A stretch of DNA of 63,988 nucleotides, the filler included, from Limisphaerales bacterium (GTDB lineage: Bacteria > Verrucomicrobiota > Verrucomicrobiia > Limisphaerales > SIBE01): the NCBI GenBank assembly GCA_044225505.1. It is 3 parts of 3 records of this genome, joined end to end, with 100 filler letters (N's around TTAATTAATTAA, not from the genome) between each part and the next. Parts side by side here need not be neighbours in the genome. Positions count along the whole stretch, not along the records: positions 44,818 to 63,988 come from JBGAIN010000157.1; 2 more parts are not named here. One strand, written 5' to 3'. Below, one piece after another: positions 22,404-51,383 of this stretch. Both the position numbers and the translations under genes were made by a program. The notes under the pieces were generated by a model that did not search any database, was not told the origin of the DNA, and worked only from the letters and a program-made list of their open reading frames with translations. Each line of letters starts with the position of its first letter. Positions within the stretch are counted from its first letter, which is position 1.

Positions 22404-22503
22404 NNNNNNNNNNNNNNNNNNNNNNNNNNNNNNNNNNNNNNNNNNNNTTAATTAATTAANNNNNNNNNNNNNNNNNNNNNNNNNNNNNNNNNNNNNNNNN
22501 NNN
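22404..22503. other. assembly/contig linker (N44-TTAATTAATTAA-N44)
   Basis: 100-nt block with an all-frame stop spacer at 22448-22459. Confidence 0.97.
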
Positions 22504-44717: not shown

Positions 44718-44817
44718 NNNNNNNNNNNNNNNNNNNNNNNNNNNNNNNNNNNNNNNNNNNNTTAATTAATTAANNNNNNNNNNNNNNNNNNNNNNNNNNN
44801 NNNNNNNNNNNNNNNNN
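44718..44817. other. assembly/contig linker (N44-TTAATTAATTAA-N44)
   Basis: Identical in design to the linker at 22404-22503. Confidence 0.97.
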
Positions 44818-45818: not shown

Positions 45819-46157
45819 TCAACCAGCGCGGTGGATCTCACGATCGCGCGTTACGGTCGGAGACGCATGCTCCGGGCCGAGATCCAGACAGTGCTTGGGA
45901 CACGCTTCAACGCACGCACCACAGTGGATGCAGCGCAGCCGATCGATAATCCATTGCTTTTGAGCCCGCAGGACACGCAAGGCGGCCGTTGGGCATTTCT
46001 TCGCGCAGACGGTGCAGTAAACACAGTGCTCTTGCTTAAATAAAAGCTGACCCCGAGAACCTGCGATGAGCCGGCGTGGTTCGAATGGATAGCGGCTGGT
46101 GGGCGGCGACGTGAAGGCCCATTTCAAGACCAGCTTGCTCATGGCGAAGTAACCCAT
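45819..46157 (-). CDS. echF: Ech hydrogenase 2x[4Fe-4S] subunit
   Basis: TSRYPF, CVYCTVCAKKCP and CIHCGACVEACP. Confidence 0.9.
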   Translation of the reverse strand: MGYFAMSKLVLKWAFTSPPTSRYPFEPRRLIAGSRGQLLFKQEHCVYCTVCAKKCPTAALRVLRAQKQWIIDRLRCIHCGACVEACPKHCLDLGPEHASPTVTRDREIHRAG

Positions 46158-46158
46158 A

Positions 46159-47235
46159 TTACCTTTCGGTGCAACTGATGCAGGGGTCGATCGTGAGAAC
46201 GATCACGGGCACATCCGCCAGCTCACATCCTGGCAGCAACTGAAGCATTGCGGGCAGGTTGGCAAACGTGGGTGTGCGCACGCGAAACCGGACCAGATGT
46301 TTCGACCCGTTTGCCTTTAGATGGTAGATGACTTCTCCGCGGGGTTGCTCGGTTCGGACTATGGCTTCGCCCTGAGGATTGCCGCTCACTTTCACGGAGA
46401 TTTCACCTTGCGGCATTTTGGCACACGCTTGCCGGATGAGGTCAATGGATTGAGTTAATTCCGCGCAGCGGACCGCACATCGAGCGTAACAGTCTCCTTC
46501 AGTGCGGACGATGGGCTGGAAGTCCAACTCACCAAAGGCGGCATAACCCTCGGTGCGAATGTCCTGGCTAACGCCGCTTGCTCGCGACATTGGTCCGACG
46601 CACCCAAGCTGATAGGCATCTTCTCGCGAGAGCACGCCTACTTGGCGAAGCCGCTGTTGGACGGAGCGATCATCAAGAAAGACGTGGACGATTTCTTGGA
46701 TATCTGCCTCGATCCGTTGCAGCGCTTGGAGGATGTCTTGAAGTGCGTTGTGGTCGATGTCGCGCCGAACGCCGCCGATTTTGCAGGAGCCGAAAATGAC
46801 TCGACCTCCAGTCGTGGCTTCGATGATATTTAAAACGCTCTCGCGCACCCGCCAGGAGTGCATAAAGAGACTTTCGAAGCCTATGGCATCGGCCATTAGA
46901 CCTAGCCAGAGGAGATGGCTATGGAGCCGAGAAAGTTCTCCCCAGATCGTTCGCAGGAATAGCGCCCGCGGCGGAACGGCAATATCCATCAACGTCTCGA
47001 CAGCCTGACAGTAAGTCTGTCCGTGAATAAAACTGCAAATCCCACACACGCGCTCGGCGACGTAGACAAACTCCACGTAGTCTTTCTTCTCCACGAGCTT
47101 TTCCAGTCCCCGATGGATAAAGCCGATCGATGGCATGGCCTCGACGACCTTTTCGTCCTCAATGACAAGGTCCAGGTGGACAGGCTCTGGCAAGACCGGA
47201 TGTTGGGGTCCAAATGGGACGATCGTGCGCGACAT
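46159..47235 (-). CDS. echE: Ech [NiFe] hydrogenase large subunit
   Basis: PFGPQHP, HRGLEK, L1 ERVCGIC, L2 DPCISCTER at the very C-terminus. Start moved to ATG 47235. Confidence 0.95.
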   Translation of the reverse strand: MSRTIVPFGPQHPVLPEPVHLDLVIEDEKVVEAMPSIGFIHRGLEKLVEKKDYVEFVYVAERVCGICSFIHGQTYCQAVETLMDIAVPPRALFLRTIWGELSRLHSHLLWLGLMADAIGFESLFMHSWRVRESVLNIIEATTGGRVIFGSCKIGGVRRDIDHNALQDILQALQRIEADIQEIVHVFLDDRSVQQRLRQVGVLSREDAYQLGCVGPMSRASGVSQDIRTEGYAAFGELDFQPIVRTEGDCYARCAVRCAELTQSIDLIRQACAKMPQGEISVKVSGNPQGEAIVRTEQPRGEVIYHLKANGSKHLVRFRVRTPTFANLPAMLQLLPGCELADVPVIVLTIDPCISCTER

Positions 47236-47239
47236 AAGG

Positions 47240-47665
47240 TCAAAGTGGAGCGCTGCTTGGGAGGGCGACCGCACGCGACGTGGGTTGCACCGCGGAAGCC
47301 GGCTTCGAGGGGGGAGCTTTGACCTTGGCGAACGGGAATTTGACTGCCGTCTTGTAAAGGTTTCCGCCAAAGTCGACCGCCATGCCATTTACTTGCACCT
47401 GGAACAGGTCATGCAATTCGTTTTCGTAGAGCATGGCGCAAGCGAAGATGGAACTGATGCTTGGGACTTGCGGGCTCGATCCCGATAACAAAAGCCGGAG
47501 ATGGGCAAGTTGTCCGGCAAGGTCGAACGTGTAGGTGAGTTCAACGACTTCCGGGAGTCGAGTCGCGCTGATTTGGACGAGGCGAGATCCGCTTGCTTGC
47601 AGACCTTGCACTCGATTCAACAGCGTTTCAGACGTGATCGGCTCAAGCTTGGGCGGGTGGTGCAT
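47240..47665 (-). CDS. echD: Ech hydrogenase subunit D (NuoC-like)
   Basis: RLVQI, ELTYTF, PSISSIFACAMLYENELHDLF. Start moved to ATG 47665. Confidence 0.88.
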   Translation of the reverse strand: MHHPPKLEPITSETLLNRVQGLQASGSRLVQISATRLPEVVELTYTFDLAGQLAHLRLLLSGSSPQVPSISSIFACAMLYENELHDLFQVQVNGMAVDFGGNLYKTAVKFPFAKVKAPPSKPASAVQPTSRAVALPSSAPL

Positions 47666-48629
47666 AAAGATCGCGTTGCAGGTGGATCCAAGTAATGGCA
47701 GGGGTAAAAACCTCGGTCTTGTATTCTCGATAACCCAATTTGTGAAATCGCCTGAGATTTCTTTCGCTTTTGCTCCCAACGTAGGTGGCATGGCGTTGCG
47801 CGCCCGGAAAGTAATGTTCAATCTCACGGAGCAGTTTTTGGCCGATACCGCGGTTTCGAAAGTAGGGATGGACAATCAGTTGGCGAATATGCAGCGTCTC
47901 CAGTTCTGCATAGCCACGCACGGAACCGATGATCTTACCGTTAACGACGGCCTTCAGGATTTGTGTTCTGCGGGGCACGCTCCGTTCTGGGGTGTTTGCA
48001 GACTCCTGCGGAATAGCCATTTGAAGCTCCGTTGACTCAAACTCGGCCTCCAGTTGTTCGAGGGTTTGCTCCAGGGCAGGCAGGCTGTCGTCGCCATAGA
48101 TTTCTGCCTCGCTTTGATAGGCGATTTTTTGCAGGGCGAGGATTTCGGCGGCATCGGCTATTCTGGCTCGTTGAATGAGTACTTTGTCGAGAGAGTTCGC
48201 GATCGATTGCATCGCTCGCTGTTTCTCTTCCAAGACGGCAAGTGAGCGAACGACACCGTCGATGATTGCCTCGGGGCGAGCCGCACATCCGGGGATGTAG
48301 ACGTCGACAGGGATGGCTGTATCCACACCGCCCGAGATATTGTAGCACTCGCGGAAAATGCCGCCGCTCGCGGCGCATGAACCGATGGCTACGACGACTT
48401 TGGGCTCAACGAGTTGGTGGTAGATGTTGCGAATGACAGCTCGGCTCTGTTCGTTCACGGCGCCTGTCACCAGGAAGATGTCTGCATGCTTCGGGTTACC
48501 CGTGTTTACGACGCCGAGGCGTTCCACATCGAACATCGGAGTGAGACAAGCGAGTGTTTCAATATCGCACCCGTTACAGCTCGAAGCGTCGTAATGAATA
48601 ATCCAGGGAGATTTGCGAAGGCTGGACAT
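47643..48629 (-). CDS. echC: Ech hydrogenase small subunit fused to a C-terminal GNAT acetyltransferase domain
   Basis: aa 1-140: SCNGCDIE, GSCA, PGCAARPE (Cys18/21/85/115). aa ~150-322: GNAT with IIGSVR, LIVHPYFRNRGIG, KLGY. Confidence 0.9.
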   Translation of the reverse strand: MSSLRKSPWIIHYDASSCNGCDIETLACLTPMFDVERLGVVNTGNPKHADIFLVTGAVNEQSRAVIRNIYHQLVEPKVVVAIGSCAASGGIFRECYNISGGVDTAIPVDVYIPGCAARPEAIIDGVVRSLAVLEEKQRAMQSIANSLDKVLIQRARIADAAEILALQKIAYQSEAEIYGDDSLPALEQTLEQLEAEFESTELQMAIPQESANTPERSVPRRTQILKAVVNGKIIGSVRGYAELETLHIRQLIVHPYFRNRGIGQKLLREIEHYFPGAQRHATYVGSKSERNLRRFHKLGYREYKTEVFTPAITWIHLQRDLYAPPAQA

Positions 48630-48636
48630 GGCAAAG

Positions 48637-49488
48637 TTACCGCAGAAGAGAGAGAATTAAAATATTGCCGAAGCCGAGGAGGACGGCCACCAGCCAAGCG
48701 CTTCGCAGGGCCGTTTGCCATTTCAGACGGGCGAAGACATTATCGACCCAAACGACGAGAAGGAAGACGGCGACGGAGACGATCAATCCAAGAATCGGCA
48801 ATGCCGCAAAGAACAAATAAACCCAACCGAGCAACAGCACGATTTCATACCAGTGTGCGATTTCAATCATGGCCAACGTCCGCCCGGAGAACTCCGTCGT
48901 GATGCCGCGCACGAGCTCTTGATGCGCGTGGTGCGAGCTGGAGAGGTCAAATGGTGATTTGCGGAGTTTAATCTCCAACGTATAGAGGAATCCGAAGAAG
49001 ATCCCGGGCAGGGCGACCACCAGGAGGCCAGGATGGCGCGCGATCTCGTGAACGTAAAAGCTCTTTGTGGCCATGTACATTCCAACGGCCGTCAAGAGCA
49101 CCATCGGCTCGTAGGCCATCATTTGCAGAAGCTCACGTTCCGCACCCAAGAAGCTGTAAGGCGAACTCGCTTTGTAGGCGCCAAGAACGAAGAAGATGGC
49201 CCCCAGCGTCAGCGCAAAAATGACCAGGAGCAAGTCTGAGCCGCCAAAAAACAATGCGCCTGTAAAAATGACGAGGAGCAAAAAGAAAACGATGAAGTGA
49301 TTCTGTGAACGGCGGACTACAACGTTCTCTTTTTGGCAGAGCTTAAAGACGTCATAGAAGGGCTGGAGTAGCGGCGGGCCGAGGCGAGCTTGCATCCTAG
49401 CAGAAATGCGGCGGTCCCAACCCGCCAACAGACCGCCCAGCAGCGGGGCTCCGACCAAAAAGACAAGGATCCTAATCCACGCACTCAT
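48637..49488 (-). CDS. echB: Ech hydrogenase membrane subunit B (NuoH-like)
   Basis: DRRISARMQARLGPP.LQPFYD, GAEREL, KSPFD, HQEL. ATGA overlap with echA. Confidence 0.92.
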   Translation of the reverse strand: MSAWIRILVFLVGAPLLGGLLAGWDRRISARMQARLGPPLLQPFYDVFKLCQKENVVVRRSQNHFIVFFLLLVIFTGALFFGGSDLLLVIFALTLGAIFFVLGAYKASSPYSFLGAERELLQMMAYEPMVLLTAVGMYMATKSFYVHEIARHPGLLVVALPGIFFGFLYTLEIKLRKSPFDLSSSHHAHQELVRGITTEFSGRTLAMIEIAHWYEIVLLLGWVYLFFAALPILGLIVSVAVFLLVVWVDNVFARLKWQTALRSAWLVAVLLGFGNILILSLLR

Positions 49489-51383
49489 AACACAGCGATC
49501 ACAAACATAAAGGCTATGAACGAGATACTGGCGATGGCGCCCCATTGAGCGAGCCACCCTTCGTTAAGGAGACCGCACAAATAATAATTGCTAAGACCCA
49601 CATCCCTTGGTCGATTGGCGCCGCCCAGGAACCGCAAGCTGCTCTGGAGGTTAGCGCCTGAGAGGTAGGCGTCCGTGACACGGACACCGCGTCCGTAATT
49701 CAGAAAGCTCACGGGAAACAGTAGGACCATGAGCATCATTAGGGTCATCACCAGCACATTGCCCGACGCCATCGAAGCCGAGCGTCCATAAACGGACACC
49801 ACGTAGACCTCAATCAGATGGGAGGAGAGAACCGGGAAAAGGAGACAGGTCAACAACGTCGCGCCAGATAGTCCATACAGGATGGTCAATTCTCCGGTCG
49901 CCAGGCGCGGCAGGGGCGTCGAATCGAGCCCTAGCACTTCCAGCAGTTTTCCCATCCATTTCACCCAGAAAAAGAGGGTGGCGGCACTGCCAAAGACGAT
50001 GAACACGGAGAGCGGGGCATACGCGTCGATCACGGCCTTGAGCACGGCCCATTTGCTGATGAGCATGCCAAAAGGGGCTAGGAACATCCCGGCCATGCCG
50101 ATTAACATCATGACTGCGACTTGGGGCATGCGCTTGATCAGGCCAGCCATGGATTCAATATCGCGGCTGTGCAACCGGTGTTCCACAACGCCAACGCAAA
50201 GGAATAAGAGGCACTTCGACACGGCGTGGAACACGATCATCAGCACGCCCGCCCAGACCGCTGCGTCCGTGCCAATGCCGCCGCACAGGACAATGAGTCC
50301 GAGGTTAGCGACTGTTGATTGTGCCAGCACCCGCTTGGCGTCGCTGGTAGTGATAGCCGCGAGAGACCCGACGAGAAAGGTCGTCGCGCCGACGAGCGCC
50401 ACCATGAGCCCCACCTTGGTTCCTGAAATGACGGGGGCCATCCGCAGAACGAGGTAAACCCCCGCCTTGACCATCGTGCTCGAGTGCAACAGAGCAGAAA
50501 CTGGAGTCGGAGCCACCATTGCCCCAAGCAGCCATGGGCAGAAGGGAAGTTGCGCGGATTTGGCAATCCCCGCGAAGCAAAGCAAAGTGGCGGGGAACAT
50601 GACTAAAGAAGCTTGCGAGTGAAGAAGGCCCTGCAATTCGCATGTTCCTAGATTCTGTTGGCACCACTGAATCGCGATGCTAAACGCCAAGCCTCCAGTT
50701 AAGTTCATCCACAGGGCACGGTGTGCATTATCGCGAGCTTGAGCGGTTCCGGTGTAGCCGATGAGCAGAAATGAACAGAGGGTCGTGATTTCCCAGAAGA
50801 AGAAGATCCAGCGCAGATCGTTGGCGAATACGAGTCCGAACATCGCACCCAGAAACGCAACCAGCAGCCCGAAGAAAAGAGGCTGGCGATCGGGAGTTTC
50901 TCGGTGAGCGTGTGCGTGATAGTCTCGCATATAACTCAAGGCGTAAACGCAAATGCCGCCTCCAACCCAGCCGTTGATGATGGCCATCAAAACAGAGAGC
51001 TTGTCGATGAAGAGTGGGGTGTTGGCGTGCGCAACGGAGCCGCTGCTAAATTCCGACCAAAGGCCGATGGCCAGCTGCGCAATGATCAGTGTGAATACAC
51101 CTGGTTTGCGGTCTCTGAGGCCAACCCAACCCAGGTAAGCGGCGATACCCATCTCAAGGACAAACATGACGGCATCCACGGTTGAACGGGGAAAAACGGT
51201 GGGAAATTCCATGATCGGGCCGGGGGCTTTCAGGAGCCCTAACGTTCCGAAAGCGACGGTCAGAGTTACCGCAACGACCGCGAATCTGCGGATTACGTCG
51301 GACCGGATGAAACAAAGTGTAGTTCCCAGCGCGATTGGCGCCAGGATTAAGACCCAAACGAGTGTCATGCTGAATGTCGGCAC
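49485..51383 (-). CDS. echA: Ech hydrogenase antiporter-like membrane subunit A (NuoL/MrpA-like)
   Basis: FFWEITTLCSFLLIG, KSAQLPF..WL.GAMVAPTPVSALLHSSTMVKAG, many TM segments. Confidence 0.92.
   Translation of the reverse strand: MPTFSMTLVWVLILAPIALGTTLCFIRSDVIRRFAVVAVTLTVAFGTLGLLKAPGPIMEFPTVFPRSTVDAVMFVLEMGIAAYLGWVGLRDRKPGVFTLIIAQLAIGLWSEFSSGSVAHANTPLFIDKLSVLMAIINGWVGGGICVYALSYMRDYHAHAHRETPDRQPLFFGLLVAFLGAMFGLVFANDLRWIFFFWEITTLCSFLLIGYTGTAQARDNAHRALWMNLTGGLAFSIAIQWCQQNLGTCELQGLLHSQASLVMFPATLLCFAGIAKSAQLPFCPWLLGAMVAPTPVSALLHSSTMVKAGVYLVLRMAPVISGTKVGLMVALVGATTFLVGSLAAITTSDAKRVLAQSTVANLGLIVLCGGIGTDAAVWAGVLMIVFHAVSKCLLFLCVGVVEHRLHSRDIESMAGLIKRMPQVAVMMLIGMAGMFLAPFGMLISKWAVLKAVIDAYAPLSVFIVFGSAATLFFWVKWMGKLLEVLGLDSTPLPRLATGELTILYGLSGATLLTCLLFPVLSSHLIEVYVVSVYGRSASMASGNVLVMTLMMLMVLLFPVSFLNYGRGVRVTDAYLSGANLQSSLRFLGGANRPRDVGLSNYYLCGLLNEGWLAQWGAIASISFIAFMFVIAVL

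Follow-up and report, generated by a model that had tools for sequence, protein, structure and literature searches.

A GNAT-fold domain fused to the small subunit of a predicted Ech-type [NiFe] hydrogenase in Limisphaerales and other bacteria

Why would the small subunit of a hydrogenase carry an acetyltransferase fold at its C-terminus? This question is raised by a stretch of 63,988 nucleotides (hereafter the window) from the genome of a Limisphaerales bacterium (assembly GCA_044225505.1), in which the gene for the hydrogenase subunit EchC continues into a domain of the GNAT family. An initial annotation of the window, made from the sequence alone, had described this echC-GNAT gene as one uninterrupted reading frame of 328 aa, and this is what we find on the minus strand at 47643..48629, with the stop codon at 47643-47645. 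Residues 1-147 (48189..48629, minus strand) form an EchC/NuoB domain, over which the Pfam family PF01058 (Oxidored_q6) matches residues 18-127 with an E-value of 7.6e-29 and which NCBIfam assigns to the NuoB subfamily NF005012 (129.7 bits versus a cut-off of 116). Its [4Fe-4S] ligands Cys18, 21, 85 and 115 show no variation among the 58 fused proteins aligned, namely that of the window and those of 57 other loci, so that the EchC part is as complete as had been proposed. Residues 148-328 (47646..48188, minus strand) form the GNAT domain, where PF00583 (residues 216-300, E 4.6e-11), PF13508 and PF13673 all exceed their gathering scores and the three GNAT families together span residues 216-319.

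Could such a gene be an artefact of mis-assembly, or of a frameshift or read-through joining two genes? Cases of this kind do occur: an apparent EchC-GNAT-EchD triple fusion of 488 aa in a long-read metagenome-assembled genome (MAG; locus L014, 7001-8467) turned out to be caused by a frameshift near the GNAT C-terminus and was dropped, and the echA, echB and echE matches of that locus are broken as well. The junction of the two domains in the window (48150-48230), however, is free of stop codons and indels, as it is spanned with 0 gaps by Logan contigs from two other studies, one of which (X4) covers 47423-48700 and the other (X5) 47200-48567. Six substitutions in these contigs fall within the open reading frame (ORF), of which five are synonymous and one, Leu202Val, lies in a disordered insert. 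Near-identical DNA is present in activated-sludge and bioreactor runs from several studies; no RNA run that contains the stretch is listed, and two rows labelled as metatranscriptomes cover a small share of it each, X19 spanning only 48442-48700. Given that 57 other complete genes from independent assemblies and 119 further protein clusters share the architecture, and that both halves of the gene are under purifying selection, an artefact has next to no chance of being the explanation: clusters, genomes and bridging contigs refute it for practical purposes. The EchC-GNAT fusion is a genuine, conserved and optional C-terminal add-on.

To what extent is the fusion shared with other genomes? Searching 5.8 billion protein clusters, we obtained 2825 matches, of which the best 120 were inspected and found to carry PF01058 together with GNAT families without exception; the 119 clusters besides that of the window show 64-71% identity and lengths of 300-365 aa. 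When one genome per species was scanned, 251 relatives were confirmed, the best 80 of which were kept. Sixty of these 80 loci contain the fusion, 57 of them as complete genes of 295-341 aa, and the other three were set aside, two being cut by contig ends and the third being the frameshifted L014. The search for PF01058-GNAT proteins that had been suggested with the annotation is thus answered with many examples, located in ech operons of related genomes, and the identity of the GNAT part between the window and related loci drops to 36-58%. By record title, the carriers belong to Verrucomicrobiota (Limisphaerales, Opitutaceae, Verrucomicrobiales, Lacunisphaera) and Planctomycetota (Tepidisphaeraceae, Phycisphaerales, Planctomycetales) as well as to Lentisphaerae, Omnitrophota, Elusimicrobiales and two Candidatus Acidoferrum bins. 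Among 401 genomes sampled at the level of the phylum, the fusion was found in 8 of the 61 with an EchC-like match at E <= 1e-40, the GNAT part having been checked in the seven carriers besides the window's own genome. Among 401 genomes sampled at the level of the class, it accounts for 6 of 13 matches at E <= 1e-60, two of these six being deduced from matches up to residue 198-199 together with open frames of 338-345 aa. The fusion is therefore patchily distributed among the sampled genomes.

The architecture is not rare in sequence databases. An ESM Atlas cluster comprises 208 members, all with PF01058 and GNAT families, and one JGI protein is even named 'Ni,Fe-hydrogenase III small subunit/GNAT superfamily N-acetyltransferase'. 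The result listings and abstract openings returned by full-text literature searches contain no description of it, and to that extent the statement of the annotation that none was known still holds. In other genomes, EchC-like domains also lie inside frames of 425-525 aa (G107:C69:95424-95843, G032:C46:15884-16300, G422:C87:6223-6645 and G439:C92:2588-3007), which may represent further kinds of EchC fusion.

An AlphaFold2 model of the fusion protein, built on 98 aligned rows, reached a predicted TM score (pTM) of 0.77, with per-residue confidence values (pLDDT) of about 95-97 for residues 222-320. The secondary structure of this model, Foldseek and Pfam agree on a complete GNAT fold of the order beta1-alpha1-alpha2-beta2-4-alpha3-beta5-alpha4-beta6-7, in line with the original description, and Foldseek matched the GNAT enzymes PaiA, ArsN, RimI-type proteins and HP0935 (TM scores of 0.7-0.8 on the target) in addition to MbhJ. 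The 'short linker' that had been placed between the domains has to be revised: the modelled helix 119-145 runs into GNAT strand 151-154 with no flexible break (pLDDT 88-97), which predicts a rigid helical connection between EchC and the GNAT domain. Between alpha2 and beta2 of the GNAT fold lies a low-complexity, variable insert (residues 199-221; 47967..48035, minus strand) that is predicted to be disordered (pLDDT 49-58); it measures 1-4 residues in 43 of the 58 fused proteins and 17-25 residues in the remaining 15.

With respect to the origin of the domain, we searched its C-terminal 189 residues alone against 1.84 billion representatives and obtained 1552 matches. The nearest are free-standing proteins of 150-170 aa, annotated generically as 'GNAT family N-acetyltransferase', and fusions to many unrelated domains, so that the free subfamily appears, judging by these matches, to be a promiscuous module. 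Its fusion partners elsewhere include enzymes of the tryptophan and chorismate pathways, namely PRAI (three cases), IGPS and chorismate mutase (two cases; P0127, P0135, P0147, P0149, P0193, P0210 and others), and further CHMI, a YbaK-type editing domain, TatA, glyoxalases, methyltransferases and HAD hydrolases. No NCBIfam model matched above its cut-off either the GNAT domain of the window or 14 further proteins from this search, at least three of which (P0124, P0125 and P0169) are fragments of fusions. Two specific assignments were tried and discarded: the ribosomal protein S18-alanine N-acetyltransferase RimI, for which TIGR01575 gave 27-28 bits against a cut-off of 86.4, and PanM/PanZ, for which NF033213 gave 24.6-26 bits against 68. 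The Pfam PanZ family does match with 27 bits (cut-off 22), beneath stronger generic GNAT matches. Among solved proteins, YpeA (2PDO) comes nearest in sequence (E 1.2e-4), and the window's own genome encodes no paralogue of the GNAT domain at E <= 1e-5.

Is the domain equipped for catalysis? In other GNATs a tyrosine in motif B acts as the general acid, and in some GNATs it is dispensable. The annotation had called an R-x-x-G-x-G motif and a phenylalanine in the sequence RRFHKLGY, and both are confirmed: the acetyl-CoA pyrophosphate loop of motif A (R258-N-R-G261-I-G263; 47841..47858, minus strand) is intact in the window, and Phe295 (codon at 47745..47747, minus strand) occupies the canonical tyrosine position four residues before a conserved glycine, Ser288 and Asn291 also being present. 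For comparison, the 58 fused proteins were aligned with 40 apparently free relatives, from which P0124, P0125 and P0169 were removed after a tree had placed them within the fused clade, and the counts were repeated on the 37 free rows left. The motif-B tyrosine is found in all 37 free relatives but in only 10 of the 58 fused proteins, which otherwise have Leu (29), Phe (16, including the window) or Cys (3) at this position. Gly261 is kept in 37/37 free versus 50/58 fused proteins, Asn291 in 35/37 versus 41/58 and the whole loop [RQ]xxGx[GA] in 34/37 versus 47/58. Each of the 11 fused proteins with a broken loop lacks the tyrosine, and all 10 that bear the tyrosine retain the loop. The free proteins (about 150-165 aa) are 36-46% identical to the window's domain and have in common with it the alpha1-alpha2 motif LQK.AYQSEA..Y....P.L.QTL as well as Lys226, Arg238, Glu271 and Lys319; they differ from the mostly tyrosine-less fused proteins, which have gained His254 (57/58), Tyr256 (54/58) and Trp314 (48/58), residues that are fixed in the fused set only, and in which alone the beta6-beta7 hairpin FKTEPFTPAITWV is constrained. 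On this alignment, the change from tyrosine to phenylalanine is no peculiarity of this genome, and the contrast between free and fused proteins supports the earlier view that it is more in keeping with a role in binding or regulation than with catalysis. It also points to a graded and, as it seems, previously undescribed loss of residues, from proteins with tyrosine and loop through those with the loop only to those with neither.

Selection on the domain was estimated as the ratio of nonsynonymous to synonymous substitution rates (dN/dS; Nei-Gojobori) from the 206 of 1653 pairs with dS between 0.1 and 0.8. The median is 0.319 for the GNAT part versus 0.154 for the N-terminal EchC part (EchC-N). 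Within the GNAT part, medians are 0.336 for proteins with tyrosine and loop (11 pairs), 0.266 for those with the loop only (140 pairs) and 0.257 for those with neither (23 pairs). Since these values are alike in all three classes, purifying selection keeps the GNAT domain irrespective of its catalytic and cofactor-binding residues.

The order of these changes was approached with a tree of EchC-N and EchE, comprising 74 rows after omission of L014, L020, L039, L043, L063, L064 and L076, in which EchE is incomplete or broken. The bacterial clade has a support of 100 in the Shimodaira-Hasegawa-like approximate likelihood ratio test (SH-aLRT). Tyrosine-bearing fusions from Elusimicrobiales, Planctomycetales/Omnitrophota and Lentisphaerae and those of the Opitutaceae type form early branches, and in a crown clade of 47 rows (SH-aLRT 94) the motif-B position is occupied by Leu or Phe, with a single Tyr (L047). 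Three rows without GNAT (L061, L062 and L068) are best read as clean secondary losses of the domain, because they are nested inside the crown clade. Following these losses, at most 1-3 conserved columns per subunit are altered in at least two of the three lineages, too few to be interpreted as compensating changes in the other subunits. No more GNAT-less crown members came to light in the class sample of 401 genomes, where unfused EchC proteins (62-71% identity) belong to other Ech clades. Planctomycetota rows are nested among those of Verrucomicrobiota, a topology which indicates that the ech operon has been transferred between phyla. The record titles of L068, L023 and L032 (Bifidobacteriaceae, Candidatus Acidoferrum) clash with their position in the Verrucomicrobiota crown clade, and this mismatch may be due to mis-binned contigs or to gene transfer. 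In a tree of the GNAT part alone, two changes between the labels fused and free are needed, one of which is forced by the starred branches. Holding the fused GNATs together, in a group that included the relabelled fragments P0124, P0125 and P0169, gave a tree better by 22 log-likelihood units with a p-value of 0.763 in the approximately unbiased test, and a single fusion event is therefore not rejected by these data.

Where might the domain sit in the complex? We folded the GNAT part (residues 148-328) against EchC-N, EchE and EchF and obtained a docking score of 0.57 (individual runs 0.57, 0.45 and 0.64), compared with 0.02 for the best control and 0.00 after replacement of EchE. At least 92% of the contacts are shared between runs, and the partners have a pLDDT of at least 75. 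In the calibration, 116 of 157 solved complexes and 2 of 215 mismatched pairs attained the mark, with scores of up to 0.60 belonging to 18 of those 157 and to both of the passing mismatches. The modelling of EchC-GNAT with EchE and EchF that had been proposed with the annotation lends weak support to docking of the GNAT domain on the EchC/EchE/EchF module. A candidate contact is the motif T103-R-D-R-E107 in the C-terminal tail of EchF (45837..45851, minus strand). The pattern T[RK][DE]xE occurs in 48 of 54 fused loci, in one of the three GNAT-less crown loci, having diverged in L061 and L062, and in none of 12 unfused outgroup loci. As there are only three GNAT losses to compare, that the EchF tail touches the GNAT domain remains a hint. 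The tail was also considered as an acetylation target and rejected in this role: lysine at the [RK] position is found in 6 of 8 tyrosine-bearing versus 25 of 46 tyrosine-less fused proteins, and across three independent pairs there is no association with the state of the tyrosine.

How are these observations best explained? We give a probability of about one half to the reading that the GNAT domain is a recruited and now non-catalytic or very slow accessory module, which still binds acetyl-CoA or CoA and plays a structural or regulatory role. On this reading EchC acquired a free-standing GNAT acetyltransferase at its C-terminus in what appears to have been a single, ancient event; the recruited domain was probably still an active enzyme then and would since have been turning into an accessory domain. 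As the domain directly follows the last helix of EchC, it is probably docked on the cytoplasmic EchC/EchE/EchF module. Early-branching lineages with the tyrosine and the acetyl-CoA loop may have kept the ability to transfer acetyl groups. In this genome and the rest of the crown clade, the general-acid tyrosine is gone, while purifying selection still acts on the fold, on the CoA loop and on a surface particular to the clade. The domain of the window is expected to bind acetyl-CoA or CoA while transferring acetyl groups poorly or not at all, because it keeps every scored CoA-binding feature but not the tyrosine, and from this we infer that the selected role, including any regulatory effect, would lie on the peripheral arm and would be structural or regulatory, not enzymatic. 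Several points weigh against this reading. Phe295 is no proof of inactivity, because some GNATs work without the motif-B tyrosine. In 11 of 58 fused proteins the CoA loop is broken although selection is the same as in the others, which speaks against CoA binding as the function retained throughout the clade; in the window, too, such binding may be unimportant. Together with the three clean losses in the crown, which show that Ech can do without the domain, these proteins imply that the selected role throughout the clade cannot be acetyl-CoA chemistry alone. The support from docking is weak and comes without a contact list, the cut at residue 147/148 splits a natural chain, and in the 12 loci scanned there is no conserved neighbour gene that would indicate a target.

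An alternative that we regard as possible but doubtful is an active acetyltransferase working in cis, on a lysine or the N-terminus of an Ech subunit, on ferredoxin or on a small molecule, with acetyl-CoA supplied by pyruvate:ferredoxin oxidoreductase (PFOR); the tyrosine would be dispensable since the substrate is held close. Such an enzyme would suit the complete GNAT fold, the intact loop and the presence of Ser288 and Asn291 in the window, the 10 fused proteins in which tyrosine and motif A are both retained, the strong conservation of the acceptor-side beta6-beta7 loop in the fused clade and the presence of PFOR and acetate kinase genes in the genome. That the nearest free subfamily is fused to many unrelated enzymes is likewise what one would expect of a module that modifies proteins or regulates enzymes. 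It is difficult to reconcile, however, with a tyrosine that is universal in the free relatives and lost from 48 of the 58 fused proteins, with the additional loss of the CoA loop from 11 tyrosine-less proteins in which dN/dS is not raised, with the missing association between the tyrosine and Lys or Arg in the EchF tail, and with the fact that no specific acetyltransferase family scores above its cut-off. At the opposite extreme, and in our estimate unlikely, the domain could be a pure scaffold, a ligand-free pseudoenzyme that stabilises or caps the peripheral arm in the manner of complex I accessory subunits. Selection that is equal with and without the tyrosine or the CoA loop, a conserved surface specific to the fused proteins, the rigid helical connection, the weakly supported docking and an EchF tail motif that accompanies the GNAT domain and has diverged in two of three GNAT-less crown loci are all compatible with a scaffold. 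Yet the window and 46 other fused proteins keep every scored CoA-contact feature despite their long divergence, and three lineages have shed the domain with no visible compensation elsewhere in the complex.

A more specific proposal, which we consider improbable, is that the GNAT domain serves as a built-in gauge of acetyl-CoA and CoA, by which ferredoxin oxidation, H2 release and ion pumping would be tuned to the acetyl-CoA made by PFOR, and that early lineages which retain the tyrosine would instead acetylate a subunit as a switch. Ligand binding would shift the seat of the domain on EchC, EchF and EchE, possibly by way of the C-terminal tail of EchF. This sensor idea, already raised in the annotation, is a sub-case of the accessory-module reading, and the broken loops and the three losses weaken it across the clade. 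If it were true, the family would be seen in the midst of a transition from enzyme to allosteric sensor of a bioenergetic complex.

Few relatives of respiratory complex I are as simple as Ech, which is also one of the main outlets through which anaerobes get rid of reducing power in the form of H2, and the listings and abstract openings of the literature searched describe no regulatory or accessory domain on it. With a conserved GNAT domain attached to the very subunit in which the last iron-sulfur cluster resides, acetyl-CoA and reduced ferredoxin, both of them products of pyruvate oxidation, would be linked in a way that can be tested directly. The stepwise loss of catalytic residues, with similar selection throughout, would offer a clean natural series for the conversion of an enzyme into an accessory subunit, a course of events also suggested for the supernumerary subunits of complex I. 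The fusion occurs in common, uncultured members of the Verrucomicrobiota and Planctomycetota that live in peat, lakes and activated sludge, habitats in which the turnover of H2 is of importance.

Several known systems come close to the one described here. PanZ/PanM, a GNAT, binds acetyl-CoA, transfers no acetyl group and controls PanD through direct contact between the proteins. It resembles the domain described here in using the GNAT fold as a CoA-dependent module for protein binding, and in the weak Pfam PanZ match, whereas its partner and context are unrelated and the window's domain stays below the NCBIfam cut-off for PanM. Complex I has acquired several accessory subunits derived from enzymes, such as NDUFA9 (SDR fold, NADPH), the acyl carrier protein, gamma-carbonic anhydrases and Thermus Nqo15. 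As in these cases, an enzyme-family fold is found on a core of the complex I type, with catalytic residues partly lost and the fold kept; unlike them, the GNAT module is covalently fused to a NuoB homologue, belongs to a hydrogenase and has weak support for its docking. The closest solved small subunit is MbhJ of the Pyrococcus furiosus hydrogenase MBH (6CFW; E 2.5e-41, with 50% identity in Foldseek), and HycG of the Escherichia coli formate hydrogenlyase (7Z0S, E 6.2e-35) is also close. MbhJ (167 aa), however, ends after the helix that here continues into the GNAT domain, and among the structure matches listed none is a homologue with a GNAT domain and none is named as Ech.

The host enzyme itself appears from its gene content to be a genuine six-subunit Ech-type (group 4) [NiFe] hydrogenase. 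EchABCDEF has reportedly been characterised in Methanosarcina barkeri, Thermoanaerobacter and Desulfovibrio, and the operon of the window is alike in its six genes and their order, its conserved Ni-Fe and Fe-S ligands and its two membrane subunits; its EchC-N is 72-77% identical to the unfused EchC of Methanoregula and Clostridia MAGs. It differs in the C-terminal GNAT domain of about 180 residues on EchC and in the clade-specific EchF tail T[RK][DE]xE. All six subunits, two membrane and four soluble, were found by Pfam. The first gene, echA (49485..51383, 632 aa ORF), encodes a membrane subunit similar to NuoL and Mrp antiporters (Proton_antipo_M, E 1.2e-51), and it is followed by echB (48637..49557, 306 aa ORF as listed), which encodes a NuoH-like membrane subunit (NADHdh, E 2.3e-45) that is 60-81% identical in related loci. 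Downstream of echC-GNAT lies echD (47240..47665, 141 aa) for a NuoC-like subunit (Complex1_30kDa, E 1.5e-6; tblastn matches in relatives). Its ATG at 47665 (MHHPPKLEP...) is an inferred start that fits the EchD alignments of the relatives, and the 23-nt overlap with the end of echC-GNAT noted in the annotation exists if translation begins there. The [NiFe] large subunit EchE (46159..47235, 358 aa from MSRTIVPFGPQ; Complex1_49kDa and NiFeSe_Hases) has the Ni-Fe ligands Cys64 and Cys67 (N-terminal RxCGxC) and Cys352 and Cys355 (C-terminal DPCxxC) invariant in 57 aligned rows including the window, in which Met1 is also invariant or nearly so. EchF (45819..46157, 112 aa) is a 2x[4Fe-4S] ferredoxin-like subunit matched by Fer4 over two stretches, and its eight cysteines for two [4Fe-4S] clusters are invariant across 54 rows. 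All of these genes lie on the minus strand, and the order echA-B-C-D-E-F and the strand are the same in every related fused locus, as far as the contig reaches.

Beyond the operon, the genome (9.0 Mb, 95% complete) encodes HypD (513 bits, contig C253; the sole Hyp gene searched), a full-length PFOR (1834 bits) and acetate kinase, and it is the presence of these proteins together with the invariant EchE Ni-Fe cysteines and the cluster cysteines of EchC and EchF that argues for a genuine hydrogenase. The gene set would fit ferredoxin-driven H2 release during fermentation, with PFOR as the likely source of reduced ferredoxin for Ech.

The window consists of three contigs joined by runs of N at 22404-22503 and 44718-44817, namely C238 (1-22403), a second contig (22504-44717) and C261 (44818-63988), which bears the ech operon; genes left of 44818 are for this reason not neighbours of ech. 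Among 56 flanking ORFs from 12 loci, no neighbour gene is shared beyond echA-F. Sporadic flanking genes encode HypA/HypB, a HypC-radical-SAM protein, GltD-like proteins and sigma-54 activators: hypA/hypB precede echA in L015 (2505-3736), and hypA and a HypC-radical-SAM fusion follow echF in L057 (9675-11319). In two of the 12 loci (L007, 9758-11170; L053, 9820-11247), a GltD/NfnB-like gene (Fer4_20 and Pyr_redox_2) comes directly after echF, which hints, as far as gene order can tell, at an NAD(P)H link with Ech in some carriers. Next to the operon in L041 (2065-3783) and L053 (11268-12920) are genes for sigma-54 activators that contain GAF domains. The genome of the window has in addition a second cluster of the group 4 type (L081; contig C225, 5359-13157, minus strand), which encodes a NuoB domain preceded, in one protein of 299 aa, by a 2x[4Fe-4S] ferredoxin part, a NuoC-NuoD fusion of 572 aa, and NuoL-like, NuoH-like, 4L-like and antiporter-like subunits.

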